Origin: Eledone cirrhosa
Taxonomy: Eukaryota
DNA length: 64,000 nucleotides
Direction of reading: 5' to 3'
Assembly: GCA_964016885.1 (NCBI GenBank)
Contig: OZ024743.1
Location: 69,130,001-69,194,000 of the forward strand
Shown in pieces: positions 4,988-55,918 of the stretch. The notes beneath the pieces were generated by a model. That model made no database searches. It saw nothing but the letters and a program-made list of their open reading frames with translations, and was not told the origin of the DNA. Within the stretch, counting starts at the first letter, position 1; each line of letters starts with the position of its first letter. The position numbers were made by a program, and so were the translations under genes.

Positions 4988-6211
4988 AGTCTTGATGTGG
5001 TCGCCCTTTATACCTCCGTACCAGCATCCCCAGCTGTCGACCTGTTGACCGAACGAGTCCGAGCATCTAACTTACACTGCTTCGGACTCACACACACGGA
5101 CATCCACCAACTCCTCTCCTTCGTTGTGGATAATGCACTCTTCAATTTCCTCGGCCACACGTACAAACAAATCTCTGGGCTACCTATGGGCTCTAGTCTG
5201 TCCTGCATACTTGCGATCTCGTACATGGACCACCTGGAGCGCAAGGCACTCAATACCCGCCAACCCAACGCCGTCGCCTTCTACTCCAGATACGTTGATG
5301 ACATCCTGATACTTACTTCTTCCCGGGAGATGGCGAATGAAATTCACCAAATCTTCAACGATACTGACCATCACGTCGATTTCACCATCGAACACCCAGG
5401 AGAAGACGGGTCACTCGCCCTCCTCGACTTCCGTATCAACATCTCGGAAGAAGGAGACATAAACACCACCTTTTACCGCAAAGCAGCGTGCAAGGACTTA
5501 TTTGTGCATTATAACTCAGCCCTCCCCAACAACGCTAAGAGAGGCTATGTCCTAAATGAACTGACAGGGATCACTAACAGATGCAGCGACCCGATGGGTG
5601 GTCTCACCCATACCACGCAATTCCGTAATCTACTCAGATCTAATGGTTATCCCAAGCGACTGATTAACGGAATTAGAGACCCCAGACCCAATAGACAGAC
5701 ACCCACTAGAAACTTAAATAAAAGCAGGTGCTTCTTTAAAATCCCCCACCTGAGTGAATATACCACGAACGCCATCCGCAGGGCCATACGGACGGAGGGA
5801 CTTGACATACATTTGGCCCACACAGGACCTTCGCTGCGAAGATGCCTCTCCAACAAACCCGACGAGTCAGATGGGACGTGTTCCCTCAGCAACTGCCCGA
5901 TACGGGGGGCAGATTGCCTACGCACCTATGTCGTATATAAGATTCAATGCGATAAATGTAACAAGTTTTACATAGGTAGCACCATCCGACCCCTACATGT
6001 TCGTATCAAGGAACATATCAACACCAACGCATCTTCCTTCCGTAAACACATCCTTAAATGCGGAAACCCACAGGGTAGACCCTTGGTCATAGTCCTAGCG
6101 ACTGAACGCAGCATCGGATCCTTAAGGATAAAAGAAGCACTTGTTATTAAGAACCTCAGACCCCCACTTAACAACCGGGCTGAGAGAAATGAGCTGACAT
6201 GGCTAACTTAA
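4988..6211 (+). CDS. 5'-truncated Penelope-like element ORF (RT + GIY-YIG), reading frame open
   Basis: [45 protein letters not shown]...HYNSALP; Cys knuckle, then [29 protein letters not shown]...EAL...LN. Confidence 0.92.
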
Positions 6212-6810
6212 CCATAGTGACCATTCACAGCCTACGGCCAGCTATCTTCACACACACGCACGTATATGCATACCCATACGCATACACACACACATCTATA
6301 TTTATACACGCACACATGTTTTTACAACCTACCACCTTTCACACCCTTTGATTTCCAGCTTCTACAGCCCACTATCTTTCACACACAAACGCACTCACAC
6401 ATATACACACACACAGTTACACACACACGTATACCCATACGCTTACACACACACATCTATATTTATACACGCACACATTTTTTACAACCTACCACCTTTC
6501 ACACTCTTTGATTTCCAGCTTCTACAGCCCACTATCTTTCACACACACACACACTCACACATATACACACTTACACTTATACACACACAGTTACACACAC
6601 ATATATATTTACACACACATATCTTACGGCTTTCACTCGCTAGCGCACCCTCTTGATTTTGGTCAGTAGCTTTTGCCACAGGCCTATCACGCGCACGCGC
6701 ATTCTTTCCCTCGTTAAAATTCTAAATAATTGTCTCCCCATAACGGCATTCCTGTCTTAACGACATCACAACTTTCTCCGCTTGGCCTGTTCCCCCCCTT
6801 TTGGAACTTT

Positions 6811-6846
6811 TCCCCTGTTGATGGGCGTGAGCCCGAAATATTGGGA
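6811..6846 (+). ncRNA. Minimal hammerhead-like motif in the PLE 3' pLTR (core variant CUGUUGA)
   Basis: TCCC-CTGTTGA-t-GGGC gtga GCCC-GAAA-TATT-GGGA; homologous to 30731-30765; A6 is mutated. Confidence 0.6.
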
Positions 6847-7037
6847 TTAAATCTCCACTACGGTAACCCTTCTACCTTTGTTTTGTTTTCATCTTTGTCT
6901 CTCTCAATTTTCACTTCCACCTGTTTCTCCTATCTATCATTCACTTCCTACCTCGAGATTCCCCTCTGCATTGTTGTGGCTTTCTTAACTACGTATTTTA
7001 CACATTTCACAATGCTTCAAGGAAACTTTAACACCCT

Positions 7038-8054
<1,017 letters not shown>

Positions 8055-8604
8055 TGTGGGCTGATAGTGGGCGATTTAAGGATTTACAGAAACCCAGGAA
8101 GCTAGATTTACCATCTTTCTAGCGGGTCCGGTTAAGCTTTTCACATTCATATGATTTATTGATTTATTGATATATTATCTGAGTGACCCTAATCTTCCGG
8201 ATCGTAATTTTTCGGTCGTATGGTTGATTTTAGACATGATCTATGTGTGTTGGTATTTTAACGATAGTTATAGCTCTGATTTATCTCATTTATTGAGCCC
8301 TCTGCAGCTCATGTCGAATTTTGTTTATCGTGAACTCGTGCGCCGTTTTTTCGATACTCGATTATTCTACAATATTTAGCTCTAGACTTAGCTATTGACC
8401 AGTTAATTTTATTGTTCATTTTTTGTCGATTCTATTAAATGATGAATAGCTCCTGTTTATTTTAACATGTCTACTGAGCACTCTTATTCGATATGTGATT
8501 TTCCACATTCCAGAATATTTTTCGCGGATATAGAGGTTATCTCCCTTGCCGGATTCCATGTGCGTTTTCAGCTAGGGTAGTGCTTTTTTATTCGTTTGGA
8601 CAAA

Positions 8605-8739
8605 GCTTGTTGATAAAGTATTTCCTGACCGCCGCTCCCTAGAAGTCTTATATATTTTTATGTGGGCTGATAGTGGGCGATGTAAGGATTTACAGAAACC
8701 CAAGAACCTAGATTTACCATCTTTCTAGAGGGTCCGGGT
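8605..8739 (+). ncRNA. Hammerhead ribozyme, U3-A8 core variant, extended stems II and III
   Basis: GCTTG-TTGATAA-[GTA/TAC, TCCT/AGGA, CGCC/GGCG arms]-GAAA-CCC...GGGT-C-CGGGT; GUC cleavage triplet at 8732-8734. Confidence 0.6.
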
Positions 8740-9257
8740 AAGCTTTTTACATTCATTTGATTTATTGATTTATTGATATTTCATCTGAGTGACCCGAATC
8801 TTCCGGATCGTAATTTTTCGGTCGTATGGTTGATTTTAGACATGATCTATGTATGTTGGTATTTTAACGATAGTTATAGCTCTGACTTATCTGAATTATT
8901 GAGCCCTCTGCCACTCATGTCGAATTTTGTTTATCTTGAACTCGGGCGCCGATTTTTCGATACTCGATTATTCTACTATATATATACATATACATATATA
9001 TATATATACATATATATATACATATATATACATATACATATATATATATATATATACATATATATATACATATATATTATACATATATATACATATACAT
9101 ATATATACATATATTTATACATATATATACATATATATATACATATATATATACAATATATATATACATATATATATACATATTATACATATATATATAC
9201 TTATATTATACATATATATATGACATATATATATACATATATATATATATATTATAC

Positions 9258-9354
<97 letters not shown>

Positions 9355-9362
9355 CATATATA

Positions 9363-9459
<97 letters not shown>

Positions 9460-9645
9460 CATATATATATACATATATACATATATATATATATACATAT
9501 ACTTATATATATATACATAATATATACATATATATACATATATTATACATATATATAATATACATATATATATACATATACTTATATATATACATATACT
9601 TATATATATATACATATATATATACATATATACATATATATATAC

Positions 9646-9676
<31 letters not shown>

Positions 9677-10294
9677 GTATACATATATATATACATATAT
9701 ATATATACACATATATATATATAATATGTACATATATATATATATGTGGCTGATAGTGGGCGATTTAAGGATTTACAGAAACCCAAGAAGCTAGATTTAC
9801 CATCTTTCTAGCGGGTCCGGTTAAGCTTTTCACATTCATATGATTTATTGATTTATTGATATATTATCTGTGTGACCCTAATCTTCCGGATCGTAATTTT
9901 TCGGTCGTATGGTTGATTTTAGACATGATCTATGTGTGTTGGTATTTTAACGATAGTTATAGCTCTGATTTATCTCATTTATTGAGCCCTCTGCAGCTCA
10001 TGTCGAATTTTGTTTATCGTGAACTCGAGCGCCGTTTTTTTCGATACTCGATTATTCTACAATATTTAGCTCTAGACTTAGCTATTGACCAGTTAATTTT
10101 ATTGTTCATTTTTTGTCGATTCTATTAAATGATGAATAGCTCCTGTTTATTTTAACATGTCTACTGAGCACTCTTATTCTATATGTGATTTTCCACATTC
10201 CAGAATATTTTTCGCGGATATAGAGGTTATCTCCCTTGCCGGATTCCATGTGCGTTTTCAGCTAGGGTAGTGCTTTTTTATTCGTTTGGACAAA

Positions 10295-10429
10295 GCTCGT
10301 TGATAAAGTATTTCCTGACCGCCGCTCCCTAGAAGTCTTATATATTTTTATGTGGGCTGATAGTGGGCGTTGTAAGGATTTACAGAAACCCAAGAACCTA
10401 GATTTACCATCTTTCTAGAGGGTCCGGTA
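10295..10429 (+). ncRNA. Second copy of the U3-A8 extended hammerhead
   Basis: GCTCG-TTGATAA-...-GAAACCC...GGGTC-CGG. Confidence 0.55.
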
Positions 10430-10670
10430 AGATTTTTACATTCATTTGATTTATTGATTTATTGATATTTTATCTGAGTGACCCGAATCTTCCGGATCGT
10501 AATTTTTTCGGTCGTATGGTTGATTTTAGACATGATCTATGTGTGTTGGTATTTTAACGATAGTTATAGCTCTGATTTATCTGAATTATTGAGCCCTCTG
10601 CCACTCATGTCGAATTTTGTTTATCTTGAACTCGGGCGCCGATTTTTCGATACTCGATTATTCTACTATA

Positions 10671-15872
<5,202 letters not shown>

Positions 15873-16356
15873 CTTTGAAATGTTTTGGCCAGTATTGGCC
15901 CAGGCCATGTCTAACTTAATAGCACCACCCGGCGAATCTTTCAATTCAGGATTTGGGCACCATGGCCCATTCGAGAAGAGAATTACTGTTTGCGGAGACA
16001 TATCCGGGTGTGGGTGGTTTATCCGGATTACTTGGAGGAATTTTTCCAAAGACTTCTTGAATTTTGTGTGGTCAGTTTCTGTTTTGACGTGTCCTGGTGT
16101 GATGTTGAAGAGAGCATGGGCCGATTGAGGTGAAATATTGTGCCGTATTTTTGTTATGAGTTGCGATTTAGATTTTTGAATGGGACAGATAGCACGGGGC
16201 CCAAGCCTTGGGTGTATCTTGAAGGCGATGCCAACATCATTCGGGCAGTGATGATGAACAATTTTCCACATCATGCAGATAATATAACGCTCACGGCGAC
16301 GCTATGGTGAGTAAAGTTTCAGGTTTTCTAGTCGACCCCAGTAGTCAAGGTCTGAC
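15873..16356 (-). mobile_element. Degenerate 3' fragment of a CR1/L2-group LINE ORF2
   Basis: [29 protein letters not shown]...PN...LFNITP...FKKSLEKFL, typical of the post-RT C-terminus; contains a stop. Confidence 0.75.
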
Positions 16357-18487
<2,131 letters not shown>

Positions 18488-18983
18488 TGAAGACGGCGTA
18501 TATATGTGTTGGTATGTATATTTAATCTTGATAGTTTGTATAATTTTGTATAATTTTGTACATAGATCTGTTGAATATGCATGCCAATTCTAACACATAT
18601 ATATCCTAGAAACGATCGTTAAATAATGAACTTTTTTTGTTTAATATAAGGAACTGTCTCATTGTTTATTCATTATTTGTTTAATATTTTATCTTGACTC
18701 TGTATACCGTTTATCTTTCACCGAAAGTGATTTTTCATTACATCTCTTCTTTCCATGATATCCGGAATACATTGAGTTCTTCATACGGATTGGACACTAC
18801 CGTAAACTCTTGGTAGATTTATCTACATAATTTTGCTCCTATTTTCACGGAAATATTCGTATTTTTGTACTGTATGTGTGTATTAATTTTATATTTATGT
18901 ATATACATATATATATATGTATGATTTTGTAAACCCATATACATTTAGTTGAGCTCTTTCAATTGTCCATCATCCATATCACA

Positions 18984-21425
18984 ATGGAAAAACAATATTT
19001 AGGAACCTCCTTAAAAAACATACCAATACCTTCTAAGGATGACTTCTTACTCCTTATGATTCAGAAAACTAATAATTTTATCAGAAGGGTTAGATGGAGA
19101 GCCTACCACTTCGATAGAAAATCTAAACAAGCAGATCGGAAATATATGTATGATTTCAATACTTACAAGAATCCACCACACAACTTTTTACTTGAAGACT
19201 TCGAGAAAGACCTTTTTAATTTAATTAAACACCTCAAATTTAAAAAGTATATATCCGTCTTTCAAAAGGACCTTGATTCTACCCTATTGGACCTAAAAAA
19301 GTCTAAAAAAATCCATGTCCACTCGGACAAAACTGGTAACTTGTATCATATGGATATTGAACATTATAACGAGTTCATATATAAAGAACTCAGAAAAAAT
19401 TATAAAAAATCTAATAATGCGTCACTCACCAACATCAACAACAAAACACACAACATAGTAAAAAAACTAAACATTGAAGATAGAACTGAACCTTTGGCAT
19501 TGAAAAGACCACACTTCAACCTGAAGGATCACAAATCTAACTTTAACTCAAATCCTTCTATTAGACTTATATGTCCCTCCAAATCAGATATTGGAATAAT
19601 TAGCAAAAAAATTTTAGATAGAGTCATCCCACAAATAAGAAAACACGTTATTTTACCACTCTGGGAAAACACCTCCCAGGTAATTAACTGGTTTAAAAAT
19701 ATTAGGTGTAAATCTTCTGCTTCTTTTCTACAATTTGATATAGATAATTACTATTCTTCTATATCACCTATACTCCTGAACAAAGCATTGATATTTGCTA
19801 AAAATAGATCTAACTTAACTTTGGATGACATTAATATTATTACACATGCTAGACTAACACTTATTGAATTTCAGAATGAATACTGGACCAGAAACACATA
19901 TAGTAATCTTTTTGATATTACTATGGGTTCAAGCGATTCCGCCCAAATTACTGATATTGTGGGCCTCTTTCTCCTTTTCAACATAAATGCCTCTTTTCCC
20001 CACCTCAAAGGTGGTTTATATCGTGATGACTGTCTTCTTCTTTCTAACAACCTTAGCCTTTCAGAAATTGAAAAAAACAAAAAACATATTAGAACTTTCC
20101 TTAAAGACTATTATAATCTTAATATTACTTTTGAAAAAACAAGTAAAGTAGTAAATTTCCTAGATATAACTTTAGATTTAGCTACGGGTATCTACCAACC
20201 TTACCATAAACCTAATCAAAACTTACATTACATTCACTCACAATCTAATCACCCTAAATCTATCCTTAAAAACCTTGCATATAATATATCACTTAGAATT
20301 TCTAACCTTTCTTCTAACCAAGATGTATTTGATAAAAATGCGACCTTCTATAACGAAGCTCTAGATAGAAGTGGCCACAAAAATAGATTAGAGTATATAC
20401 CTTCTACTAAAAATACTGAAAGCATACAACATAATATTACCAACAAACACCAAATGAAAAGTACACACCTAAATGCCACCCACACTATACCCCAAAATAC
20501 CAAATCTTCTAATATAAAGTATAGTAACTCTCAAAAAACTACTCATCATACAACTCTAATAAATATTAATAATAAAACTCCTAATAAAAAGGATAAAACA
20601 CCTAAATCTACAAATATAACTAAAAATGGTTGTGGTGAGATCATTAACATTAATCCTCCTAGTAAAAATCACGATACAACCTATAAAAATAATAAAAATA
20701 ATAAACAACATAGAAACCGTAATAGACGGGTTACTTGGTATAATGCTCCATTTAATTTACAAGTTAAGGATAATATTGCTAAAAAAATTTTTTATATCCT
20801 TGAGAAAAACTTCCCGCCAAACCACAAATACCATCAAATCTTAAATAGGTCTACAGTTAAATTCTCATACTCTACAACAAATAACATAAAACAAAATATA
20901 AGTGCCTATAATGCATATAAATGTAAGAAAACCATAAGTATACCACCAGTACATCAAATTAACCATAATATCTCCTCAAATACAGAATTAACGAAAGGAT
21001 GTAACTGTAGAAACAAAGCAAACTGCCCATTAAAAGGGAATTGTCTTGTTAACAACATAGTCTATAAATGTAATGTTAAAACTAAAGATTCTATTTGCTC
21101 ATATATAGGAGCTACCTCTAACAATTTTAAGACAAGGTTTAATACCCACAAGCATAGTTTTAAAAATGCCGCACTGGCTAATACAACATCTCTAGCAGAA
21201 AAAATCAATAGTTATAAAAATAAGAATATAGAATATGATTTGACCTGGAGTGTGCTCAAAAGAGCCACCCCTTATCAAAATAATAGAAATGAATGTAGAT
21301 TATGTTCCCAAGAACTATTTGAAATAATGAGGTCTAAGGATATCTTATTAAATAAACGACAGGAATTAATTATATCGTGTAATCATAAACTAAAAAAAAC
21401 ATTTAAATATTATAAACCTAATTAA
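18984..21425 (+). CDS. Naiad-clade PLE protein (813 aa): reverse transcriptase + GIY-YIG endonuclease
   Basis: SLKNIPIPS...FIRRVRWRA N-terminus; LKDHK, QFDIDNYYSSI, ITMGSSDSAQ, LYRDDCL, NFLDITL, HSQSNHP; CNCRNKANCPLKGNC-IVY-YIG-RFNTH...CRLC..E..LNKR.E...CNH; no internal stops. Confidence 0.93.
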   Translation: MEKQYLGTSLKNIPIPSKDDFLLLMIQKTNNFIRRVRWRAYHFDRKSKQADRKYMYDFNTYKNPPHNFLLEDFEKDLFNLIKHLKFKKYISVFQKDLDSTLLDLKKSKKIHVHSDKTGNLYHMDIEHYNEFIYKELRKNYKKSNNASLTNINNKTHNIVKKLNIEDRTEPLALKRPHFNLKDHKSNFNSNPSIRLICPSKSDIGIISKKILDRVIPQIRKHVILPLWENTSQVINWFKNIRCKSSASFLQFDIDNYYSSISPILLNKALIFAKNRSNLTLDDINIITHARLTLIEFQNEYWTRNTYSNLFDITMGSSDSAQITDIVGLFLLFNINASFPHLKGGLYRDDCLLLSNNLSLSEIEKNKKHIRTFLKDYYNLNITFEKTSKVVNFLDITLDLATGIYQPYHKPNQNLHYIHSQSNHPKSILKNLAYNISLRISNLSSNQDVFDKNATFYNEALDRSGHKNRLEYIPSTKNTESIQHNITNKHQMKSTHLNATHTIPQNTKSSNIKYSNSQKTTHHTTLININNKTPNKKDKTPKSTNITKNGCGEIININPPSKNHDTTYKNNKNNKQHRNRNRRVTWYNAPFNLQVKDNIAKKIFYILEKNFPPNHKYHQILNRSTVKFSYSTTNNIKQNISAYNAYKCKKTISIPPVHQINHNISSNTELTKGCNCRNKANCPLKGNCLVNNIVYKCNVKTKDSICSYIGATSNNFKTRFNTHKHSFKNAALANTTSLAEKINSYKNKNIEYDLTWSVLKRATPYQNNRNECRLCSQELFEIMRSKDILLNKRQELIISCNHKLKKTFKYYKPN

Positions 21426-22193
21426 TAACATTATTTTAGAAATTAATTTAATTTAAATGTTAGTTAACCTATAAATTTAATTTAATTAAAATTTTATTAC
21501 AGATGAGAATATAAAATATTATGTAATCATAAATTGTGAAAAACCTTTAAATATTACTAATATATACTTAGTAATTTAATTTATAGATTAATTTTAATTT
21601 ATTTAAACCTTTTATTATAATTCTTTTACAGATAAAATATAACAAAATAATATCGTGTATCCAATGACAGAGAAATAATTCTTAGTATTATAGACCTAAT
21701 TAATATACATTTTAGAAATATATTTATAATTTGGTTTTAATTTTAATCAACCTAAAAATTTAATTATAATTAATGGTATACTTGTTTATTTTGAGATGCA
21801 TAGATTTTGCCTTATTTCTTGTTTATTGTATTTCCTAACACTGAAACTATGTAAAAACATACATTAGATCAAGATACGGAAAATATTCTATGTTTCTTGA
21901 AACATATATTTACTATGATCCCCTTCTCCAAACCCCCCCTTTCCCCCATACTATTATCATCTGTATTTGTAAGCGTGTATGTATGAATATATATGTAGGT
22001 AGGTGTCTATATATGTTTGGGTATTTATATCTGAATATAAAAATACATATATGCGCATGCAAATATGAATGTAAGATTGTGTGTGTATATATGAGTGTGT
22101 GTATGTATGTATATATGTGTATATATGCATGTGTATATGTATGTGTATGTGAATGTGTGTATGTGTATATGTATATATATATGTGTATATATG

Positions 22194-22226
<33 letters not shown>

Positions 22227-22462
22227 GTATGTATATATATATATGTATATATATGTGTATGTATGTATGTGTGTGTATGTGTGTTGTATATATATGTATG
22301 TCTCTCTATTTATATGTCTATCTTCGTATCTATGTGGATATATGTGTGTGTGTGCATGTATACACATATATGTGTTTATGTGTATATGTGTGTATGTGTG
22401 TATATATGTGTGTGTGCACACACATATATATGTGAGTGTGTATATGTGTCTGTGTATATGTA

Positions 22463-22506
<44 letters not shown>

Positions 22507-22562
22507 TGTCTATGTGTGAATATATGTCTATATTCGTATGTGTGTATATATGTATGTATATG

Positions 22563-22664
<102 letters not shown>

Positions 22665-22889
22665 TATTATTATAATATAACTTATGTGTATGTGTGTATA
22701 TGTGAGGGTGTGTATGTGTATATAATATGTGTATATATAAGTGTAAAAAAATATATATATATGTGCATGTCTGTTTTTTATGTGTGTGTATATATATATA
22801 TATACGTGTGTATATATATGTATATGTGGGTGTTTGTATGTGTATTTATGGTGGTATGTGTGTGTGGGTATGTATATATATATATGAAT

Positions 22890-22953
<64 letters not shown>

Positions 22954-23287
22954 CTCTATTAATGCGTGTATATATGTATATGCATATGCCTTTTTATTTT
23001 TATTTGTATGTCTGAGTTGGGTGAGGTTGTAGTGGTGTTTCTATGTATATACGCATATATGGATGCGTATGTATTTGTATATATGAGTATATGTAAGTGC
23101 ATATGTATGTATGATTATATATCTAATTCTATGTATGAATATATATGTATATATATGTGTGTATGTAAGTTGTGTGTGTATGTATGTATATGTCTATGTG
23201 TGTATATATATATATGTATGTATATCTATGTATGTGTATGTATGTACATGTATGTCTATGTATGTGTGTATGTATGTGTGTGTGTAT

Positions 23288-23345
<58 letters not shown>

Positions 23346-23572
23346 GTATATATCTTTATTATTTATTTTTTATATATATGTGTGTGTGTGTATGTGTGTG
23401 TGTGTGTGTGTATATATATCTTTATATATGTGTATGTGTATGTTCGTGTAGGTGTATGTGTGTGTATGACTTTATATGTATGTGTGTATGTGTGTATGCG
23501 TATATATTTCTATGTGTGTGTACATGTGTGTATGTGTGTGTATGTGTATGTGTGTGTATGTGTATATGTATG

Positions 23573-23625
<53 letters not shown>

Positions 23626-23961
23626 ATATATATATATATATATCTATATGTTTTTCTATTTGTATATGTATGTGTGTATAGGTATATACCTTTCTCTTTG
23701 TATGTCTAAGTTGTGTGATAGTGTAGTGGTGTTTGTATGTATATACCGATATATAGATGCGTAAGTATTTGTCTGTATGTATGTATGTAAGTCTGTATAT
23801 ATTTGTGTGTATATATAGCTATGTATGTGTATATCTGTATGTATATTAGTATGTAAGTGTTGTATATGTGCATGTATGTGTGTGGTTATATATATGTGTG
23901 TCTATATAGTATGTGTGATTATATGTATATGTATGCGTGTATGTATGTGTATATGCACATG

Positions 23962-24008
<47 letters not shown>

Positions 24009-24174
24009 ATTTATATGTATATGTGTATATGTATGTATGTGTGTATATGTATATGTTTATATATGTGTGTGTATGTATGTTCTTAGTGTGGATGTGTGTA
24101 TATGTATGTATGTGTTTGTATATGTGTGTATATATATGTATGTGTGTGTGTGTGTCTATGTATATATATGTATG

Positions 24175-24248
<74 letters not shown>

Positions 24249-24879
24249 CTTGATATATTTCTTTTTTCTTTTTTCTTTCTATTCTTTCCTCTTTAATGTT
24301 TATTTATTATTTATTATTTTTTATTTTCTTAGTTTATAGATACATCTATATTAGGCAGTCGGCTCAGACCGTTGAATACTGACCTCTCCCCCCCCCCCTC
24401 CCACCTAATTTCTGTATCTTGATCTAAATGTGTGTGCCAGTGTTTATGTGAGTGAATTAATATCCATGTGCTTATGATTTTATATCCACATATATAAATG
24501 TGAGTGGGGGTGTGTGTGTGTTTGTATGTTCGTGGTTATGTGTATATTTATGCATATACGCGCGTCTATGTGTGATTGTACGGATATGTGTGAGTATGAA
24601 AAAATATATTTATATACTTAATTTCATATTTGTGTGTCTATACGCATCTTATCTGTGCATTATAAACTTACAGAGACATTAACCTTGAAATTTTGTATTT
24701 GCATCCATCCTTTTAGTATGCGTATACAAATTATACATACATTTTTGTAAAATATGTGTAAGGGTTTTACATGTATATACACACACCGAACTGCATTTAA
24801 CCCTTTGTGTTTTCATTGGTCAATTTTCTTCCCAAACGGACCTGAAATTTTGAATTGTTGTTATTATCAATAAATATAC

Positions 24880-25033
24880 TTCATTATTTCTGAAGACGGC
24901 GTATATATGTGTTGGTATGTATATTTAATCTTGATAGTTTGTATAATTTTGTATAATTTTGTACATAGATCTGTTGAATATGCATGCCAATTCTAACACA
25001 TATATATCCTAGAAACGATCGTTAAATAATGAA
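24880..25033 (+). ncRNA. Type I hammerhead ribozyme with ~115-nt stem II in the Naiad 3' pLTR
   Basis: TTCATTATTT-CTGAAGA-[TATATATGTGTT/AACACATATATA; GGTATGTATATT/AATATGCATGCC]-GAAAC GATC GTT-AAATAATGAA; perfect 10-bp stem I. Confidence 0.8.
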
Positions 25034-25401
25034 CTTTTTTTGTTTAATATAAGGAACTGTCTCATTGTTTATTCATTATTTGTTTAATATTTTATATACA
25101 TACATATATATATACATACATACATATATATATACATATATATATATACATACATATATATATATATACACATACATATATATATATATATACATACATA
25201 TATATATACATACATATCTATATATATATATACATACATATATATATATATATACATACATATATATATACATACATATACATATATACACATACATATA
25301 TATATATACATACATATATATATATACACATACATATATATATATATACATACATACATACATATATATATATACATACATACATATATATACATATATA
25401 C

Positions 25402-25736: not shown

Positions 25737-27022
25737 GTAATAATAATAAAATTGAAGACTAAAATCCAAAGAGGGCTCCATCAGGAAAATATATATCAAA
25801 TATATTAGAACCGTTGAGCAAATATTTATTAAAATAACAGATTAAAGTTTAAGCAAAGAATCGCTGCTTTCACCCTTAACGGGAACTTCTGAAACTAACA
25901 AAGTCAATCTGTAAACGCAGAACTGGATATTACAAAAAACGTTGCAACCGAAGGAAGACAGGAAGACGATACTTTGGTTCGTGGTAACGTACGCTATGCA
26001 AATAAGTAAAGGAATAAACCAAACAGATACTTAGCTCCCACATCAAGACGTAAAATATCCACGTATAGATCGTGCTATCCGTTAGGGTATAACGTGGGGC
26101 TGTAATACAGGAAAGTTTTGCGCAATTTATTTTTACAAGCCGAAATTGCCTCAGATTTTTTGTTTAAGATGTGGTCTGTAGCGTAGAGAATTTCCAGGGC
26201 CTCAGCGGCGCAGAGGTCACATGGTCTTTTATTTCCGTTATACGATCTAGCCCTAGCTAGGGTCTCCCAGTGTCAATTATATTGGGTGTGGTTGTCTTTT
26301 AGACTCCAGATATAAGCTGAAAGTGACGTCATATTCCTTCTTAGAGGGTAACGAAAAGAATGGGTATGCATGTAAAGACGCTGCTAGAAACTATTGGCGG
26401 TTAACCCTATGTAGGCCCTACGGGACGTGGGTGTTACAACCTTACATTTGTAGACAATGTTACTAGAGAGGCATTTCCCGGATAGGGGGCAATCAGCCCG
26501 ATTCCTACAATTACAGTTAGTACTAACTACAGGTTTGCACGTGTTCCTACGGCTAGGTAGTTTAGCTAAATTTGAAGCTGTGATGTTATGTGCAAGGCTA
26601 GGAGTCGTAGAGTAAGACATTTTAATAGTATTTCTATTAAAAATTTTACTATGTTTATGTGTAGGGGGAAAATGCTTCGTAATAAGGGAAAGAAAGATCT
26701 TAGCTAATGGTGTGGCCGCCTCCATATTATATGGTGGGTTATACCAACAAATGCGACGTGATCTATTTCTACTAGGTCTATATTCGTACTCTGTATATGC
26801 TACCTTATCGACAAATCCACTTCGAGCAAGAGCTTCATTGTAATAAGTGGAATGGTCGTTGAAAATGCGCTCGTTGGTGGAAAGACGGGAAAGCCTCAAC
26901 GAATCGTTTCCTACCAGGTTCTTGGTTATGCTGGCAGGATGGTTGGAATGCTTACTTATGTAATTAAGCGTATCATTCGGCTTTCTATACGGGTAATACA
27001 ACCCATTCAATAAATTGAGGGT
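25737..27022 (-). mobile_element. 5'-truncated, disrupted second Naiad-type PLE (coding relic 26075-27022, then 3' UTR)
   Basis: YPYRKPN...SNHP...WYNPPYN...[30 protein letters not shown]...YIWSLK...CDLCAAE...LNKKSE; TAG stop and frameshift. Confidence 0.88.
25846..25896 (-). ncRNA. Hammerhead-like motif (variant core CAGAAGU) in the 3' UTR of the second Naiad
   Basis: AGTTT-CAGAAGT-tCCC gttaa GGGt-GAAAGCA...TGCT-T-AAACT; paralogue at 39105-39157. Confidence 0.5.
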
Positions 27023-30027: not shown

Positions 30028-30183
30028 TTGGTTCTCTGAAATAGCGATATATATATGAATGTATATATAGTATATTTTACAATACATTGTATGCTTAATT
30101 AAAAGCATTTCGAAGACCTTACTCTATTGTTTTAGAGTAGTGACAGTCTTACTTACTTTAAATTTTCAGCAAACAGGGTAGAT

Positions 30184-30230
30184 AAAGCTGACATAGCTCT
30201 GTTTCGTACTGATTGATACTTATCAAAGCC
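30184..30230 (-). ncRNA. Hammerhead ribozyme, U3-A8 core
   Basis: GGCT-TTGATAA-GTAT caatca GTAC-GAAAC AGAGCTAT GTC-AGCT. Confidence 0.6.
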
Positions 30231-30382
30231 AAGTACATTCATATATCGCTATTTCAGAGCACCAATTCTAATTTTCAATTTCTGCCTGACTGGCAACCGC
30301 TCTGTATGATCAGTTCCAGATTATTACTAGAATTCTATAAGAATCAAACATTCATGATTTTCAGCAAACAGGTGGAGTACTT

Positions 30383-30427
30383 AGCTTGGATAAGTACCAA
30401 TCAGTACGAAACAGAGCTCTGTCAGCT
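30383..30427 (+). ncRNA. Hammerhead-like motif, U3-A8 core with an additional U4G change
   Basis: AGCT-TGGATAA-GTAC caatca GTAC-GAAAC AGAGCTCT GTC-AGCT. Confidence 0.5.
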
Positions 30428-30573
30428 TTATCTCCCCTGTTTGCTGAAAATTTAAAGCAATTAAGACTGTCACTACTCGAAAACAATAGCGTAAGGTCTT
30501 CGAAATGCTTTTAATTAAGCATACAATGTATTGCAAAATACACTATATATACATCGCTATTTCAGAGCACCAA

Positions 30574-30645
<72 letters not shown>

Positions 30646-33835: not shown

Positions 33836-34913
33836 CCTGTGTGAGTGTTCGTGTGTGAGGGAGTGCGTGTGCATGTGTGTGTGTAAACCACCGTTGGAAT
33901 CGGAGACATAGGCCGCGAAACACGATCATCACTGACAACGAACTCGAGAGAGAATCCCTTATGGTTGATTCCCAACCTGCTAGAAATAACAGTCAGGTTG
34001 GTTAGCATACGTGGTAAGTCTTTCTTCTTCTTTGGTGTTATAAAATGAGTATCAACAAACTTTCCTGGATATACCCTAATCCCAATCCTCTACATACTTT
34101 CCGATTGTCACTTTTCGTTTTTTTCGTGTGATACGCGAAGGAAACAACCAACAAAGATTTCTCTTTTATATCTCTTTTATTTGTTCATTCAAAATATTTT
34201 CCAGCTAATTCTGTCGTACAATATACATCAGCAATCTAATGTTTAAAACATGGGAATAGCTGCGATATATGCACCATATCAATCAAAAACGATATGAGAA
34301 TTGAATACCATACTAAAGCGTTAATAAGCTTGCCAAGAACCTGCAGATAGAAATGTTAATAAATACAATTGGCTTGGGTAAACTTTAACATGTTCTTTCA
34401 TTGTAGGTTTCTTTTCTTAGCCAGTACGTTAAAGAAAATTGATAGTTGCAACAATAAAGGTTGAACAGAGAACACATTTTTTTAACAAACTTTACAATAA
34501 TTTGTACAGCCATAATGGAAATTCCAAGTAACAGAAAATACATAAATTACATTGTTAGAGCCTCAGGTTATACAACATTTTTTGTTCGGCTCTTGGGAGC
34601 AGAGATGAAGAGATTGTTTGGCGAGCTCACCCTAGACCATCCTACATACAATTGACCATGGTTTTCCCAGATGAAGGCCAGTCACATTTAGGGTTTGACT
34701 CTCAGCTTTGTTGATGGTAATCGCGAAGCTTAGTCTCTCTGTTGTTCTAGTAACATTTTTTTCTTATGGAAAATCTGATCTTGCGGCCAGGCTAGGACTT
34801 TTTGGGTGGCATATCGGCAGTAACAATGACGATACGCCGTCTGTGCTTTCGTGAAATAAATACGTTTGTTTATATTTTGTTTTTTGTGTATGCAAAAATA
34901 TCTGTACACGAAT
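33561..34913 (-). mobile_element. Non-autonomous Helitron, copy 1 (helicase relic 34556-34737)
   Basis: Duplicate of 37720-39077; terminal CTAG mutated to CTAT. Confidence 0.75.
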
Positions 34914-35127: not shown

Positions 35128-35291
35128 TTAGAATTGGTGCTCTGAAATAGCGATATATATATGAATGTATATATAGTGTATTTTGCAATACATTGTATGC
35201 TTAATTAAAAGCATTTCGAAGACCTTACTCTATTGTTTTAGAGTAGTGACAGTCTTACTTACTTTAAATTTTCAGCAAACAGGGTAGATAA

Positions 35292-35336
35292 AGCTGACAT
35301 AGCTCTGTTTCGTACTGATTGGTACTTATCAAAGCC
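35292..35336 (-). ncRNA. Hammerhead ribozyme, U3-A8 core (best-preserved copy)
   Basis: GGCT-TTGATAA-GTAC caatca GTAC-GAAAC AGAGCTAT GTC-AGCT. Confidence 0.65.
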
Positions 35337-35679
35337 AAGTACATTCATATATCGCTATTTCAGAGCACCAATTCTTATTTTCAATTTCTGCCTGACCTGC
35401 AACCGCTCTGTATGATCAGTTCCAGATTATTACTAGAATTCTATAAGAATCAAACATTCATGATTTTCAGCAAACAGGTGGAGTACTTAGCTTGGAAAAG
35501 TACCAATCAGTACGAAACAAAGCTCTGTCAGCTTTATCTCCCCTGTTTGCTGAAAATTTAAAGCAAGTAAGACTGTCACTACTCGAAAACAATAGCGTAA
35601 GGTCTTCGAAATGCTTTTAATTAAGCATACAATGTATTGCAAAATACACTATATATACATCGCTATTTCAGAGCACCAA

Positions 35680-35735
<56 letters not shown>

Positions 35736-37994: not shown

Positions 37995-39489
37995 CCTGTG
38001 TGAGTGTTCGTGTGTGAGGGAGTGCGTGTGCATGTGTGTGTGTAAACCACCGTTGGAATCGGAGACATAGGCCGCGAAACACGATCATCACTGACAACGA
38101 ACTCGAGAGAGAATCCCTTATGGTTGATTCGCAACCTGCTAGAAATAGCAGTCAGGTTGGTTAGCATACGTGGTATGTCTTTCTTCTTCTTTGGTGTTAT
38201 AAAATGAGTATCAACAAACTTTCCTGGATATACCCTAATCCCAATCCTCTACATACTTTCCGATTGTCACTTTTGGTTTTTTTCGTGTGATACGCTAAGG
38301 AAACAACCAACAAAGATTTCTCTTTGATATCTCTTTTATTTGTTCATTCAAAATATTTTCCAGCTAATTCTGTCGTACAATATACATCAGCAATCTAATG
38401 TTTAAAACATGGGAATAGCTGCGATATATGCACCATATCAATCAAAAACGATATGAGAATTGAATACCATACTAAAGCGTTAATAAGCTTGCCAAGAACC
38501 TGCAGATAGAAATGTTAATAAATACAATTGGCTTGGGTAAACTTTAACATGTTCTTTCATTGTAGGTTTCTTTTCTTAGCCAGTACGTTAAAGAAAATTG
38601 ATAGTTGCAACAATAAAGGTTGAACAGAGAACACATTTTTTTAACAAACTTTACAATAATTTGTACAGCCATAATGGAAATTCCAAGTAACAGAAAATAC
38701 ATAAATTACATTGTTAGAGCCTCAGGTTATACAACATTTTTTGTTTGGCTCTTGGGAGCAGAGATGAAGAGATTGTTTGGCGAGCTCACCCTAGAGCATC
38801 CTACATACAATTGACCATGGTTTTCCCAGATGAAGGCCAGTCACATTTAGGGTTTGACCCTGAGCTTTGTTGATGGTAATCGCGAAGCTTAGTCTCTCTG
38901 TTGCTCTAGTAACATTTTTTTCTTATGGAAAATCTGATCTTGCGGCCAGGCTAGGACTCTTTGGGTGGCATATCGGCTGTAACAATGACGATACGCCGTC
39001 TGTGCTTTCGTGAAATAAATACGTTTGTTTATATTTTGTTTTTGTGTATGCAAAAATATCTGTACACGAATATATAATTATATGTATATTAAAATAATAG
39101 ATTATAGTTTAAGGAAAGAATCGCTGCTTTCGCCCTTAACGGGATCTTCTGAAACTAAAAAAAGCAATTTGTGAACGCAGAAGTATATATTTCGAATAGC
39201 GTTGCAACCGAAAGAGAACAGGAAGATGATATCTTGGTTCGTAGAGACGTTAGGAATGTCGTATAACTGGAAGTGTTGACATTTGAACATTTTAAAGAAG
39301 TGAATATTTAAATAATGTCTTTAATCTTTTAACAAATTTCAGTAGACAAACATAATCTCACTTTCTTACTTGGAAAAAGTTACATCCATGGTGCAAATTT
39401 GGTGCCGTTTGGTCCAGCGGCTTGGCGGAAAGTTTGTTAGTTACATACGGCCGTCAAAGTATATATATATATATATATATATATAAAGA
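37720..39489 (-). mobile_element. Non-autonomous Helitron, copy 2 (helicase relic 38715-38896; 5' end uncertain)
   Basis: Minus strand reads RLSFAITINKAQGQTLNVTGLHL/HGQLYVGCSRVS...TKNVV (PIF1-like motifs V/VI, frameshifted). 3' end: CCCGGC gaa GCTGGG hairpin, then CTAG followed by T. Confidence 0.8.
39105..39157 (-). ncRNA. Hammerhead-like motif (CAGAAGA core) in a solo copy of the second Naiad 3' UTR (~39085-39270)
   Basis: TAGTTT-CAGAAGA-tCCC gttaa GGGc-GAAAG...CTT-AAACTA. Confidence 0.5.
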
Positions 39490-45463: not shown

Positions 45464-45703
45464 ATACGTGCTACTGTACGTCTGTATACATATATGTATG
45501 TACGTATACATACATACTTACATTTAAGTAAGTGCCATACTAAGAGTGAGAAATGAAATTTCGTTTTCATTTTTTTTCAACTTGTCGTTTTCGGTATGCC
45601 TGACCGATTTAACTCACTCAATATGCAAATTAGGCTGCTCAGCCGTTAATTTTCATAAGGAAAGTATATACTTTCGAACGTTCAACTATCTGGCAGATGG
45701 GTA

Positions 45704-45748
45704 AACGGTGCTGATGATAGCTAACAAGCTTGAAACTAGTACATCGTT
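45704..45748 (+). ncRNA. Type I hammerhead ribozyme
   Basis: AACGGTG-CTGATGA-tAGCT aaca AGCTt-GAAAC TA GTA-CATCGTT; 7-bp stem I, palindromic ACTAGT, GUA triplet. Confidence 0.8.
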
Positions 45749-45906
45749 CCTGTGTCAGTGTTGAACAAAAAGGTGACGTGGTTGCCTTAACAGCGTATGG
45801 CATAAATTCAGGCTGTTCTGTTTGTTGATAAACAAGCGAACAAAGCTGCGTTATAATAAACGTCAGCTAAACTGATGCGTGCTTATATGTATGTGTACCT
45901 GTATGC

Positions 45907-45945
<39 letters not shown>

Positions 45946-46181
45946 TGCTACTGTACGTCTGTATATATATATGTATGTACGTATACATACATACTTACAT
46001 TTAAGTAAGTGCCATACTAAGAGTGAGAAATGAAATTTCGTTTTCATTTTTTTTTCCACTTGTCGTTTTCGGTATGCCTGACCGATTTAACTCACTCAAT
46101 ATGCAAATTAGGCCGCTCAGCCGTTAATTTTCATAAGGAAAGTATATACTTTCGAACGTTCAACTATCTGGCAGATGGGTA

Positions 46182-46226
46182 AACGGTGCTGATGATAGCT
46201 AACAAGCTTGAAACTAGTACATCGTT
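46182..46226 (+). ncRNA. Type I hammerhead ribozyme (copy 2)
   Basis: Identical to 45704-45748. Confidence 0.8.
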
Positions 46227-46384
46227 CCTGTGTCAGTGTTGAACAAAAAGGTGACGTGGTTGCCTTAACACCGTATGGCATAAATTCAGGCTGTTCTGTT
46301 TGTTGACAAACAAGCGAACAAAGCTGCGTTATAATAAACGTCAGCTAAACTGATGCGTGTATATATGTATGTGTACCTGTATGC

Positions 46385-46416
<32 letters not shown>

Positions 46417-46469
46417 GCATGCTACTGTACGTCTGTATACATATATGTATGTACGTATACATACATACT

Positions 46470-46518
<49 letters not shown>

Positions 46519-47173: not shown

Positions 47174-47402
47174 AATTTTTTTTGGGGTGTTAGTAGGCGT
47201 CAGTCATCTTACCATCCCATTCCTTCTAACTAGCCTCTGTGTCACGTGATTGATTCTTTAGAATCGGCCATTTGACTTGAAGCAGTGAGAATTTCGGTAC
47301 ATAGAATCCAGTCCTCGCAAGCTGTTCGATCTACCGAATTATTATTATTTTTATATGAGCCGCCAGTGTCCGCGCATTGCCTGGAGACTTAACTGAGAAT
47401 AG

Positions 47403-47484
47403 ACTTCCTGACGACGCAATGAATTCTCGACAGTTGGATTACGTAACTGTCTTTATCCCATTGCAGAAACTAATTAGTTGGAGT
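47403..47484 (+). ncRNA. Type I hammerhead ribozyme, array unit 1 (CUGACGA)
   Basis: ACTTC-CTGACGA-cGCAATG..GACAGTT/AACTGTC..CATTGCa-GAAAC TAATTA GTT-GGAGT. Confidence 0.82.
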
Positions 47485-47976
47485 GAAAATTTAAGTAAGA
47501 AAAACATTTTTTTTAAATTTTTTTAAAAAAATATTTTCTTATTTTACGTCCTTTATATTATTGTTCTGCATTCTCCTGCATTGAACCACCTAGGTACTAT
47601 GACATAACCTGTGTATTTGCTGGCATGGGCGTGCATCTGTGCGCTTATGTTAGTTGATATATTAAATTATCTATATTTATCTCCAAATCACTGATTTGTC
47701 GAGCAAACTTGTCAAAACCACTTCTAAAAAAAAAAAAAAAAAAAAAAAATTTTTTTGGGGGTGTTAGTAGGCGTCAGTCATCTTACCATCCCATTCCTTC
47801 TAACTAGCCTCTGTGTCACGTGATTGATTCTTTAGAATCGGCCATTTGACTTGAAGCAGTGAGAATTTCGGTACATAGAATCCAGTCCTCGCAAGCTGTT
47901 CGATCTACCGAATTATTATTATTTTTATATGAGCCGCCAGTGTCCGCGCATTGCCTGGAGACTTAACTGAGAATAG

Positions 47977-48058
47977 ACTTCCTGATGACGCAATGAATTC
48001 TCGACAGTTGAATTACGTAACTGTCTTTATCCCATTGCAGAAACTAATTAGTTGGAGT
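47977..48058 (+). ncRNA. Type I hammerhead ribozyme, array unit 2
   Basis: As unit 1, core CTGATGA. Confidence 0.85.
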
Positions 48059-48544
48059 GAAAATTTAAGTAAGAAAAAAATTTTTTTTAAATTTTTTTAA
48101 AAAAATATTTTCTTATTTTACGTCCTTTATATTATTGTTCTGCATTCTCCTGCATTGAACCACCTAGGTACTATGACATAACCTGTGTATTTGCTGGCAT
48201 GGGCGTGCATCTGTGCGCTTATGTTAGTTGATATATTAAATTATCTATATTTATCTCCAAATCACTGATTTGTCGAGCAAACTTGTCAAAACCACTTCTA
48301 AAAAAAAAAAAAAAAAATTTTTTTTGGGGTGTTAGTAGGCGTCAGTCATCTTACCATCCCATTCCTTCTAACTAGCCTCTGTGTCACGTGATTGATTCTT
48401 TAGAATCGGCCATTTGACTTGAAGCAGTGAGAATTTCGGTACATAGAATCCAGTCCTCGCAAGCTGTTCGATCTACCGAATAATTATTATTTTTATATGA
48501 GCCGCCAGTGTCCGCGCATTGCCTGGAGACTTAACTGAGAATAG

Positions 48545-48626
48545 ACTTCCTGATGACGCAATGAATTCTCGACAGTTGGATTACGTAACTGTCTTTATCC
48601 CATTGCAGAAACTAATTAGTTGGAGT
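48545..48626 (+). ncRNA. Type I hammerhead ribozyme, array unit 3
   Basis: As unit 1, core CTGATGA. Confidence 0.85.
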
Positions 48627-49117
48627 GAAAATTTAAGTAAGAAAAAAATTTTTTTTAAATTTTTTTAAAAAAATATTTTCTTATTTTACGTCCTTTATAT
48701 TATTGTTCTGCATTCTCCTGCATTGAACCACCTAGGTACTATGACATAACCTGTGTATTTGCTGGCATGGGCGTGCATCTGTGCGCTTATGTTAGTTGAT
48801 ATATTAAATTATCTATATTTATCTCCAAATCACTGATTTGTCGAGCAAACTTGTCAAAACCACTTCTAAAAAAAAAAAAAAAAAAAAAAAAATTTTTTGG
48901 GGTGTTAGTAGGCGTCAGTCATCTTACCATCCCATTCCTTCTAACTAGCCTCTGTGTCACGTGATTGATTCTTTAGAATCGGCCATTTGACTTGAAGCAG
49001 TGAGAATTTCGGTACATAGAATCCAGTCCTCGCAAGCTGTTCGATCTACCGAATTATTATTATTTTTATATGAGCCGCCAGTGTCCGCGCATTGCCTGGA
49101 GACTTAACTGAGAATAG

Positions 49118-49199
49118 ACTTCCTGATGACGCAATGAATTCTCGACAGTTGGATTACGTAACTGTCTTTATCCCATTGCAGAAACTAATTAGTTGGAGT
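49118..49199 (+). ncRNA. Type I hammerhead ribozyme, array unit 4
   Basis: As unit 1, core CTGATGA. Confidence 0.85.
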
Positions 49200-49384
49200 G
49201 AAAATTTAAGTAAGAAAAAAATTTTTTTTAAATTTTTTTAAAAAAATATTTTCTTATTTTACGTCCTTTATATTATTGTTCTGCATTCTCCTGCATTGAA
49301 CCACCTAGGTACTATGACATAACGTGTGTATTTGCTGGCATGGGCGTGCATCTGTGCGCTTATGTTAGTTGATATATTAAATTA

Positions 49385-49450
<66 letters not shown>

Positions 49451-54559: not shown

Positions 54560-54996
54560 GTAGGAGGTGAGTTTTATTGTAGTACAATAAAGTAATGCAG
54601 ATATCGGATAAGATGCACTCTACAGTTTGTTGGACTGGAGTATACATAATATAAGATCAAAAGATGGTTAAAGGAGTTCCATGTATTTTATTATGCGCAT
54701 TTCAAAAACAAACATAATCATGCAATAATAATATTTGTGTTTTCATCAGATAAAACAGGAGAACATGATATGAAGGCTAAAAAACAGTTGTGGATAGTGC
54801 AGTTTTAAATCAACATATGAAACCACTTTTCATATGTTGATTTAAAACTGCACTATCCACAAGTGTTTTTTAGCCTTCATATTATGTTCTCCTGTTTTAT
54901 CTGATGAAAACACAAATATTATTATTGCATGATGATGTTTGTTTTTGAAATGCGCATAATAAAATACATGGAACTCCTTTAACCATCTTTTGATCT

Positions 54997-55003
<7 letters not shown>
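54557..55003. mobile_element. Inverted (divergent) pair of the 265-bp HHR element; HHRs at 54686-54755 (-) and 54895-54964 (+)
   Basis: Centre tcaacatatgaaa-ccact-tttcatatgttga; both HHR cores intact (CTGATGA...GAAATGCGCATA). Confidence 0.85.
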
Positions 55004-55076
<73 letters not shown>

Positions 55077-55079
<3 letters not shown>

Positions 55080-55832
55080 ACGTAAAATAAGAAAATTTTA
55101 AAAATTAAAAATCAACTTACTAAAATTTTCACTCCAACTAATTAGTGTCTGTAATGGGATAAATATAGTTACATACTATAACTATAGAGAATTCATTACG
55201 TCATTAGGGAGTCTATTCTCAGCTAAGTTCCCAGGCAATGCGCGGACACTAGGAACCCATATAAAAATAATAATTCAGTGGATGAAATAAAGCTAGCGAG
55301 GACTAAATTCGGAGCACTGAAAAAATTTCACTGCCTCTGGTCAGTGGCAGATTGTAAAGAATCAATCACATGACACCGAGGTTAATCAGTTAGGAGCGGG
55401 GTGGTATTATGACAAGAGCCTACTACTTCTTTAGAATCTGCCACTGACCAGAGGCAGTGAAATTTTTTCAGTGCTCCGAATTTAATCCTCGCTAGCTTTA
55501 TTTCATCCACTGAATTATTATTTTTATATGGGTTCCTAGTGTCGGCGCATTGCCTGGGAACTTAGCTGAGAATAGACTTCCTGATGACGTAATGAATTCT
55601 CTATAGTTATATTATGTAACTATATTTATCCCATTACAGAAACTAATTAGTTGGAGTGAAAATTTTAGTAAGTAAGTTGATTTTTAATTTTTAAAATTTT
55701 CTTATTTTACGTCTTTCATATAATTGTTCTGCACCCCCCTGCATAGAACCACATCGGTACTAAGACATAGCGTATATATTTGCTAGCATGAGTGTACATC
55801 TGTACACATATGTTGGTAGATGTACTAATTCT
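55077..55832. mobile_element. Inverted pair of a diverged relative of the 570-bp array unit
   Basis: 55077-55427 (-) and 55428-55832 (+) align to the 47174 unit; the minus-arm HHR is mutated (CTAATGA, GACA). Confidence 0.85.
55576..55657 (+). ncRNA. Type I hammerhead ribozyme, covarying paralogue of the array HHR
   Basis: ACTTC-CTGATGA-cGTAATG..TATAGTT/AACTATA..CATTACa-GAAAC TAATTA GTT-GGAGT. Confidence 0.85.
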
Positions 55833-55918
55833 ATATATATATATATATATATATATTATTGGCAACATGACCCTCCCAAAATATAACAATATATATATAT
55901 AAATATATAAATATATAT

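Follow-up and report, generated by a model that had tools for sequence, protein, structure and literature searches.

Architecture of the 606-bp element and its setting

The window, the whole stretch of 64,000 nucleotides analysed here, is AT-rich DNA crowded with (TA)n arrays and Penelope-like elements (PLEs), features that suggest an animal genome. It holds two 921-bp copies of an element built from a repeat with a 606-bp unit (Table 1). In this 921-bp layout, a 315-bp partial unit is followed by 290 bp that are present once and then by the 315 bp again. The interval 8605–10429 named in the original prediction does not form a single repeat array; it belongs to two separate 921-bp copies with about 770 bp of (TA)n between them. 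The segments 8056–8370 and 8662–8976 differ at 19 of 315 positions, the halves of each copy being 6% apart. From the sequences, copy 2 would be either a local duplication of the older insertion together with a (TA)n spacer, or the assembly repeating it. Two further local duplications (30076–30578 with 35182–35684, and 33885–34893 with 38044–39051) lie around (TA)n arrays at about 98.5% identity. Their identity level matches that of the two copies of the 606-bp element, and they may have arisen by recent duplication or else be artefacts of the assembly.

No stop-free frame of 100 amino acids lies wholly within 8056–8976, and a coding role for the 606-bp repeat was rejected because it has no coding frame. 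An RT or GIY-YIG ORF, the mark of an autonomous PLE, is absent from the 606-bp element. The architecture is of the PLE type, the partial tandem forming pseudo-LTRs (pLTRs) within (TA)n, where a target-site duplication is unreadable. A comparison of the 606-bp unit with the pLTRs of the PLEs inside the window found no similarity.

Table 1. Positions of the hammerhead, of the 606-bp element and of neighbouring elements, counted from the first letter of the window
Feature	Position	Strand	Remarks
5′-truncated PLE	4988–7038	+	RT and GIY-YIG domains at 4988–6208
Further (TA)n arrays	7039–8055 and 10667–18485		
Element copy 1	8056–8976	+	921 bp, 1.5 units of the non-coding 606-bp repeat; (TA)n on both sides; pLTR-like partial tandem
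Upstream 315-bp partial unit, copy 1	8056–8370	+	carries the hammerhead 3′ half only, from the stem II tip onward
Full 606-bp unit	8371–8976	+	repeat spacing 606
Hairpin upstream of the ribozyme	8524–8595	+	folds on the plus strand (z −1.69, weak alone); kept in the second subfamily
Stem I, 5′ strand	8605–8609	+	pairs with 8735–8739; 5 bp, three G–U in copy 1
Catalytic box UUGAUAA	8610–8616	+	U3–A8 variant of CUGANGA; U3 = 8610, A8 = 8615, A9 = 8616
Stem II	8617–8694	+	78 nt, unbranched interrupted hairpin; −27.7 kcal/mol
UA-rich tip of stem II	8649–8661	+	register of the 5′ junction with (TA)n
GAAAC box	8695–8699	+	G12 A13 A14 A15.1 C15.2; identical across all four window copies
Helix III	8698–8733	+	4 bp (8698–8701/8730–8733), 6+1 internal loop, 5-bp inner helix, 11-nt loop
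Inner helix of helix III	8708–8712 with 8724–8728	+	extended by a G–C pair in the upstream partial units
GUC triplet	8732–8734	+	predicted cut after C8734, from hammerhead numbering
Stem I, 3′ strand	8735–8739	+	8736–8739 alternatively pairs with 8698–8701 (inactive register)
(TA)n-type microsatellite between the copies	8977–9745		about 770 bp
Element copy 2	about 9746–10666	+	98.6% alike to copy 1; hammerhead core at 10300, C17 at 10424
Full-length PLE-like element	18488–25095	+	813-aa ORF 18984–21422 between 205-bp direct repeats
Second PLE fragment	about 26384–27022	−	42% over 149 aa to the 813-aa ORF; cut off by (TA)n
Hammerhead-like family	27788 (+), 54749 (−), 54901 (+)		36–39-nt stem II, GAAAU box
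478-bp units, ×2.1	45469–46474	+	canonical hammerheads 45711 and 46189; U·U at the stem II base
About 574-bp units, ×3.9	47184–49395	+	canonical type I hammerhead per unit; paralog 55116–55844, 77%

A probable type I hammerhead with a U3–A8 core

The full unit contains what looks like a real self-cutting motif, a U3–A8 hammerhead predicted to self-cleave after C8734. The core, stem II, GAAA, stem III with its inner helix, the GUC triplet and stem I all lie, by sequence and folds, where the original prediction had placed them, and the modelled structure supports a type I fold in which the core has U3–A8 and the long stem II runs across the repeat junction. Three helices surround two boxes and helix I is open, with 5 bp in copy 1 and 3 bp in copy 2. 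The sequence holds U4, G5 and A6, A9, G12, A13 and A14, the A15.1–U16.1 pair and an N17 that is not G. Likewise by sequence, U8610 and A8615 are able to form a Watson–Crick 3–8 pair, within-family covariation at 3–8 lying outside the visible variant rows. A U–G wobble of the kind that an A8G change leaves at this pair is often partly active.

Stem II has the predicted length of 78 nt and consists of one interrupted hairpin rather than the several helices that had been proposed. Its base, where G10.1–C11.1 would be expected, presents an A·A mismatch first and then G8618–C8693. The stem starts one base past the first box and stops one base short of the second, as is also the case at the canonical neighbours 47982, 55581 and 45711. 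In a search for a tertiary contact between helices I and II, complements of loop 3, of the helix III bulge and of the stem II tip gave only 5-nt matches; by inference, we propose the 2 × 2 loop close to the stem II base as a candidate for such a contact. As for stem I, its description as G–U-rich holds for the three G–U pairs of copy 1, one of which is private to that copy: position 8608 is C in copy 2 and in 42/42 reads of the public run X7 (see below), which makes this pair C–G. Both window copies carry private stem I changes.

The descriptor found no hammerhead on the minus strand of the 606-bp unit. Inspection by eye showed no second box to match CUGAGUGA at 8786, and a type II or type III hammerhead built on it was dropped. 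The helix III region in each half (8089–8134 and 8695–8740) has an alternative rod that buries the cut site and is formed from different letters in the two cases; in these models, the rods could be a kept off-state or chance.

Chance expectation and cost of the active fold

The descriptor, which was written after the hit was seen, allowed C3–G8 or U3–A8, a stem II of up to 120 nt, a helix III of 4 bp and a stem I of 4 bp. With stem I set to 4 bp or more and both strands counted, it matched 8 dinucleotide shuffles out of 183,435 made from the unit, a rate that scales to about 0.005 expected chance matches per 64-kb window. A looser setting gave 31 shuffle matches, five of them with stem II as a single domain, and the best of these reached −16.2 kcal/mol compared with −27.7 kcal/mol for the real stem. 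The stability of stem II relative to shuffles is biased towards the plus strand (z −3.66, against z −0.96 on the minus strand), and most of its pairs keep a high probability even when the whole unit is folded. UUGANAA, a sequence common in AT-rich DNA, occurs at 57 sites in the window, one of which passes the full descriptor. Five non-pairing control cores passed at 0/180 sites, and an A3–U8 control core matched once, inside a microsatellite.

Searches against Rfam at the gathering score returned no hammerhead in the window, and none is included in the 54 matches up to E 10 in 8000–10700; the matches up to that value comprise microsatellite-driven miRNA matches plus one weak viral UTR match. 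Since the canonical hammerhead neighbours in the window are also missed by Rfam at gathering score, this silence says little. The motif likewise escapes a CUGANGA search, as had been foreseen. Pattern scans for further copies gave 0 in viral contigs and 0 in prokaryote genomes. Ten metagenome loci from the pattern scan were judged to be chance, all 10 being confined to 19–23 letters.

These results bear on whether the fold arose by chance, in a satellite with structure of its own or in some other non-autonomous repeat; the hairpins would then be real, and the two boxes and the GUC triplet coincidental. Such an explanation draws on the frequency of UUGANAA, the A3–U8 control match and the tuning of the descriptor after the fact, as well as on the lack of an Rfam match and on the region 8590–8760, which when folded whole is not unusual compared with shuffles (z −1.26). 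Against it stand the low shuffle rate and the empty non-pairing controls, together with a layout that agrees with those of neighbouring hammerhead-bearing families, and we regard it as most improbable.

The minimum-energy fold pairs 8698–8701 with 8736–8739, which destroys the core. Because 8698–8701 prefers this partner, the active fold is costly, at 6.3 kcal/mol in copy 1 and 3.9 kcal/mol in copy 2 compared with 2.7–3.0 kcal/mol for five canonical neighbours.

Hammerhead-bearing neighbours in the window

Five canonical-core motifs folded from the window have stems II of 36, 39, 51, 51 and 115 nt. In three of the five, the stem II base has the mismatch of the U3–A8 motif in one-sided or two-sided form, and the offset of the U3–A8 motif at that position is seen again at 47982 and 55581. 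The long-stem neighbours all have a tiny palindromic helix III, whereas that of the U3–A8 motif is stable and non-palindromic.

The 574-bp family, which is missed by Rfam, combines a 51-nt stem II that has a C·A mismatch at its base with a palindromic mini helix III. Comparison of its stem II with the paralog shows three two-sided changes, one one-sided change and 0/14 pairs broken, and its 3′ end is fused to (TA)n through the same sort of short match as that of the 606-bp element. This family is better formed as a retrozyme candidate than the 606-bp element; the presence in the window of a canonical-core family with the same plan supports a retrozyme-like reading of the latter.

The element that carries the 813-aa ORF has its hammerhead at 24890, with a stem II of 115 nt (−40.5 kcal/mol); the upstream copy of the direct repeat starts within the catalytic box. 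We take this ORF to be putatively Neptune-like, on account of its motifs and of its resemblance to the fragment at 26384–27022. Pfam recognizes RT (E 3.8e-9) and GIY-YIG (E 1.9e-4, just below the cut-off) at 4988–6208 and has no match for four other element proteins, among them the 813-aa ORF at 18984. A 480-bp island on the minus strand (15850–16330), inside a long (TA)n array, contains an open frame without a Pfam match, which from its appearance is presumably the 3′ end of a CR1/L2-type LINE. The 478-bp units each contain a short (TA)n run, and two copies of the family with 36–39-nt stems form an inverted pair at 54641–55009. A decayed hammerhead box is found at 6815 (A6 to U) and a comparable decayed motif near 45010.

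The neighbours indicate that long stems II and 5′ ends within the ribozyme are ordinary in this genome. The exceptional status first given to the motif finds no support here: neighbouring stems II span 36–115 nt, and U3–A8 is already described in nature (PMC3088659, PMC4209133).

Copies of the family in public sequencing reads

The 606-bp unit was compared with four of nine listed public runs, X1, X7 (from another study) and X5 and X6 (both with other organism labels). On the unit fall 537 contigs of X1, 4,944 reads of X7 (4,397 with only a partial fit), 12 contigs of X5 and a single contig of X6 that stops short of the ribozyme. The head-to-tail joint of 8976 to 8372 is found in all four runs (about 200 X7 reads, plus contigs of X1, X5 and X6), and as such reads are equally produced by 1.5-unit copies they give no evidence either way on longer arrays. 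About 44 X7 reads span the core region and differ from both window copies at 8574, 8579, 8580, 8628 and 8633, which indicates that they stem from other loci. The change at 8633 converts C–G to U–G in stem II, and that at 8628 affects an internal loop. Of 172 variant rows, 40 are listed, and positions 8610 and 8615 do not appear in them. Since each listed row is fixed in some run, a fixed C3 or G8 is unlikely and a minority possible. The reads thus point to a multi-copy family in which the visible changes mostly appear to leave the core and the helices intact.

A diverged X5 contig allows a comparison over 8683–8857. Its 34 core or paired positions carry 0 substitutions, compared with 23 over the remaining 141 (Fisher p 0.009, or p 0.015 once the first 12 positions are dropped), a result from one contig that has 4/27 substitutions and 15 gap letters unplaced and that would give p 0.61 if all four unplaced substitutions fell on critical positions. 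This contig and a deep X1 contig form a second subfamily, which is under 80% alike across 8569–8682, first box included. When paired by hand from loose ends, the hairpin at 8524–8595 has 0/13 outer pairs broken in the second subfamily; four G–U pairs are changed to G–C and one A–U to G–U, all five one-sided. Exchanges of this kind between G–U and Watson–Crick pairs fit a structure on the plus strand.

One X1 contig has 15 other letters preceding 8683, which open with a UGAUA box and continue as at 8617–8620. They would form either a compact 7-pair stem II behind the UGAUA box or a covarying arm of the long stem II. The first possibility would suit a family whose main core box is CUGAUAG at 8667–8673, beside a compact stem II. 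In that case the assignment of cut site and helix III given above would hold, and the window subfamily would use the upstream box, with its long stem II as a subfamily rearrangement. Pairing by hand yields seven pairs (one bulge) between the 15 letters and 8687–8693 around a 4-nt loop, for which a rough hand estimate gives a chance of about 1–2%. However, the same letters pair equally with 8627–8637 as the 3′ arm of the long stem II, the replaced stretch of 113 versus 114 letters makes the second subfamily probably colinear, and a compact core would have to carry one more base at position 7 or else have G at position 9. The evidence for it comes from one contig and 15 letters, with position 3 outside the visible letters, and we consider this arrangement very unlikely.

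The reads also bear on whether the ribozyme is dead, that is, a once-working hammerhead that no longer cuts in this subfamily and is carried along, with U3 and A8 the outcome of drift or a once-compensated pair now functionless. An inactive register favoured by 4–6 kcal/mol, private stem I changes in both copies, copy halves far enough apart to mark an old insertion and the decayed core nearby at 6815 all agree with such a loss, as does the report that hammerhead mutants had no effect on PLE insertion, for which cleavage is dispensable in vitro (Frangieh et al. 2024, PMC11167929). Two independent drift changes that restore a Watson–Crick 3–8 pair would nevertheless be unlikely, U3 and A8 are seemingly common to other copies, judging from the variant rows listed, and the diverged X5 contig spares the helices as well as GAAAC and GUC. 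We see a dead ribozyme as an unlikely explanation.

Ends of the insertion

Consistent with the original prediction that the array starts at the TA-rich loop of stem II, the 5′ junction falls at the register 8649–8661, which matches (TA)n at 11/13 letters, the best among the unit's 606 13-mers. With respect to the predicted cut site, the 5′ end lies 76 nt or slightly more upstream and the 3′ end 242 nt downstream. At the 3′ end, the family reads carry on with five letters that are also compatible with (TA)n. At this single locus, the 5′ match to (TA)n could have arisen during insertion or through a subsequent deletion that joined the array to the tip. A weak hint that a 5′ start at the stem II tip may recur comes from three X1 contigs, in which 8939 is joined to letters resembling 8656–8672 (median 9 letters).

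Ends away from the cut site fit the copying of uncut RNA with internal initiation, as described for a lizard PLE (PMC11167929). In that system initiation occurs without target homology, whereas the 606-bp element has short (TA)n matches at both ends. The 606-bp family (at 8976, by family reads) and the unrelated 574-bp family (at about 49387) both end at C followed by TATATTTA and are fused with (TA)n. In sequence terms, this common end is possibly a shared start signal for reverse transcription.

Comparison with known hammerheads and retrozymes

Hammerheads have been well documented both in PLEs and in retrozymes. In natural hammerheads, U3–A8 has been reported as a C3–G8 to U3–A8 covariation, and a U–U mismatch at 10.1–11.1 is tolerated (Perreault et al. 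2011, PMC3088659). The 606-bp unit differs from those variants in that its mismatch is A·A, or else in having two extra bases around G–C, and the accessible text of that paper contained no A·A example. About 1,300 U3–A8 Penelope-associated motifs have been described in Schistosoma mansoni (Cervera and De la Pena 2014, PMC4209133). According to the same work, PLE motifs usually have one more base following A9, a large helix III is reported only for fungal and protist PLEs, and animal PLE hammerheads have low activity.

The present motif resembles the Cercyon PLE hammerheads of that study in being type I, with a U3–A8 core that escapes the standard descriptor, a short helix I (4–5 bp), an enlarged helix II and an extra base after A9, and in occurring mostly as single motifs in repeats (PMC4209133). 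By contrast, the Cercyon motifs are minimal, with a 7–8-bp helix II and a helix III that is absent or tiny and palindromic, and they need dimers; a 78-nt stem II together with a 4-bp helix III and an inner 5-bp helix is closer to fungal and protist PLEs (PMC4209133). The literature searched yielded no long-stem-II animal hammerheads; supplements and subscription papers may hold examples.

In animals, non-LTR retrozymes consist of tandemly repeated units that bear type I hammerheads and are expressed as circles of 170–400 nt (Cervera and De la Pena 2020, PMC7229834). According to a 2026 preprint, they originate from PLE pLTRs and have units of 51–972 bp (Li et al. 2026, 10.64898/2026.07.22.740005). 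The 606-bp element shares with them a head-to-tail arrangement of non-coding sequence, a single type I hammerhead in each unit and a PLE-rich animal genome as its host (PMC7229834; 10.64898/2026.07.22.740005), and its 606 bp lie inside the range of Li et al. but exceed the length of the known circles. Unlike them, it has a variant core and is known here from DNA alone. With its 1.5 units, a window copy comprises a whole motif and half of another in place of the two consecutive whole ribozymes by which Li et al. define an active element. Among Xenopus retrozyme dimers assayed in vitro by those authors, 1/9 cleaved and 8/9 did not. PLEs themselves show a preference for (TA)n and partial tandems (Craig et al. 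2021, PMC8557442), and the 606-bp element is like their pseudo-LTRs in its partial tandem, which forms terminal direct repeats, in its (TA)n bias and in its ends off the cut site (PMC8557442; PMC11167929).

A probable retrozyme-like passenger of PLEs

The region combines a hammerhead fold with plus-strand bias, a 1.5-unit partial tandem in a (TA)n setting, many other copies and PLEs nearby. On sequence and modelling grounds, we consider it probable that the motif is a selected type I hammerhead of a multi-copy, non-coding 606-bp family, a retrozyme-like non-autonomous passenger of PLEs. Membership of the retrozymes is partly established, in that the unit and the layout of the sequence fit. What sets this animal repeat apart is that it unites U3–A8 with a stem II of 78 nt and with a helix III that is stable and non-palindromic, and that its 5′ junction falls at the most (TA)n-like stretch of the unit.

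For such a passenger, read-through transcripts of tandem units would be cut after C8734 to give 606-nt units, possibly circles. Uncut multimers or circles would serve as templates for a PLE protein, with initiation some 240 nt downstream of the cut site; copying would halt at the UA-rich tip of stem II, and the copy would join (TA)n via short homology. U3–A8 would represent a subfamily trait that preserves the 3–8 pair rather than local decay, and the long stem II would be a tolerated decoration, as in the neighbouring families. Both window copies are aged and probably weakly active at best. Taking into account that each has a single whole ribozyme, the window copies are unable to release a 606-nt unit.

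A more far-reaching proposal, which we find doubtful, gives the ribozyme further tasks. The stem II tip would mimic (TA)n and set the 5′ joining point, the stable helix III with its competing register would switch cleavage on and off, so that one ribozyme could cut by itself with no need of a dimer, and the motif would be part of a class that escapes Rfam and the usual descriptors and has stems II of 36–115 nt, carried by PLEs and their passengers in this animal lineage. If this dual role were true, the ribozyme would be processing site and targeting aid at once.

Should there be neither cutting nor recurrent 5′ junctions, the 606-bp element would be another aged repeat. If 5′ junctions recur at the stem II tip genome-wide, they would make it possible to test how PLEs complete their insertion in (TA)n. 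If the 606-bp family does cut, it would provide a monomer-competent animal motif with a U3–A8 core for testing, and it would mean that entire animal families escape surveys that rely on CUGANGA and short stems.
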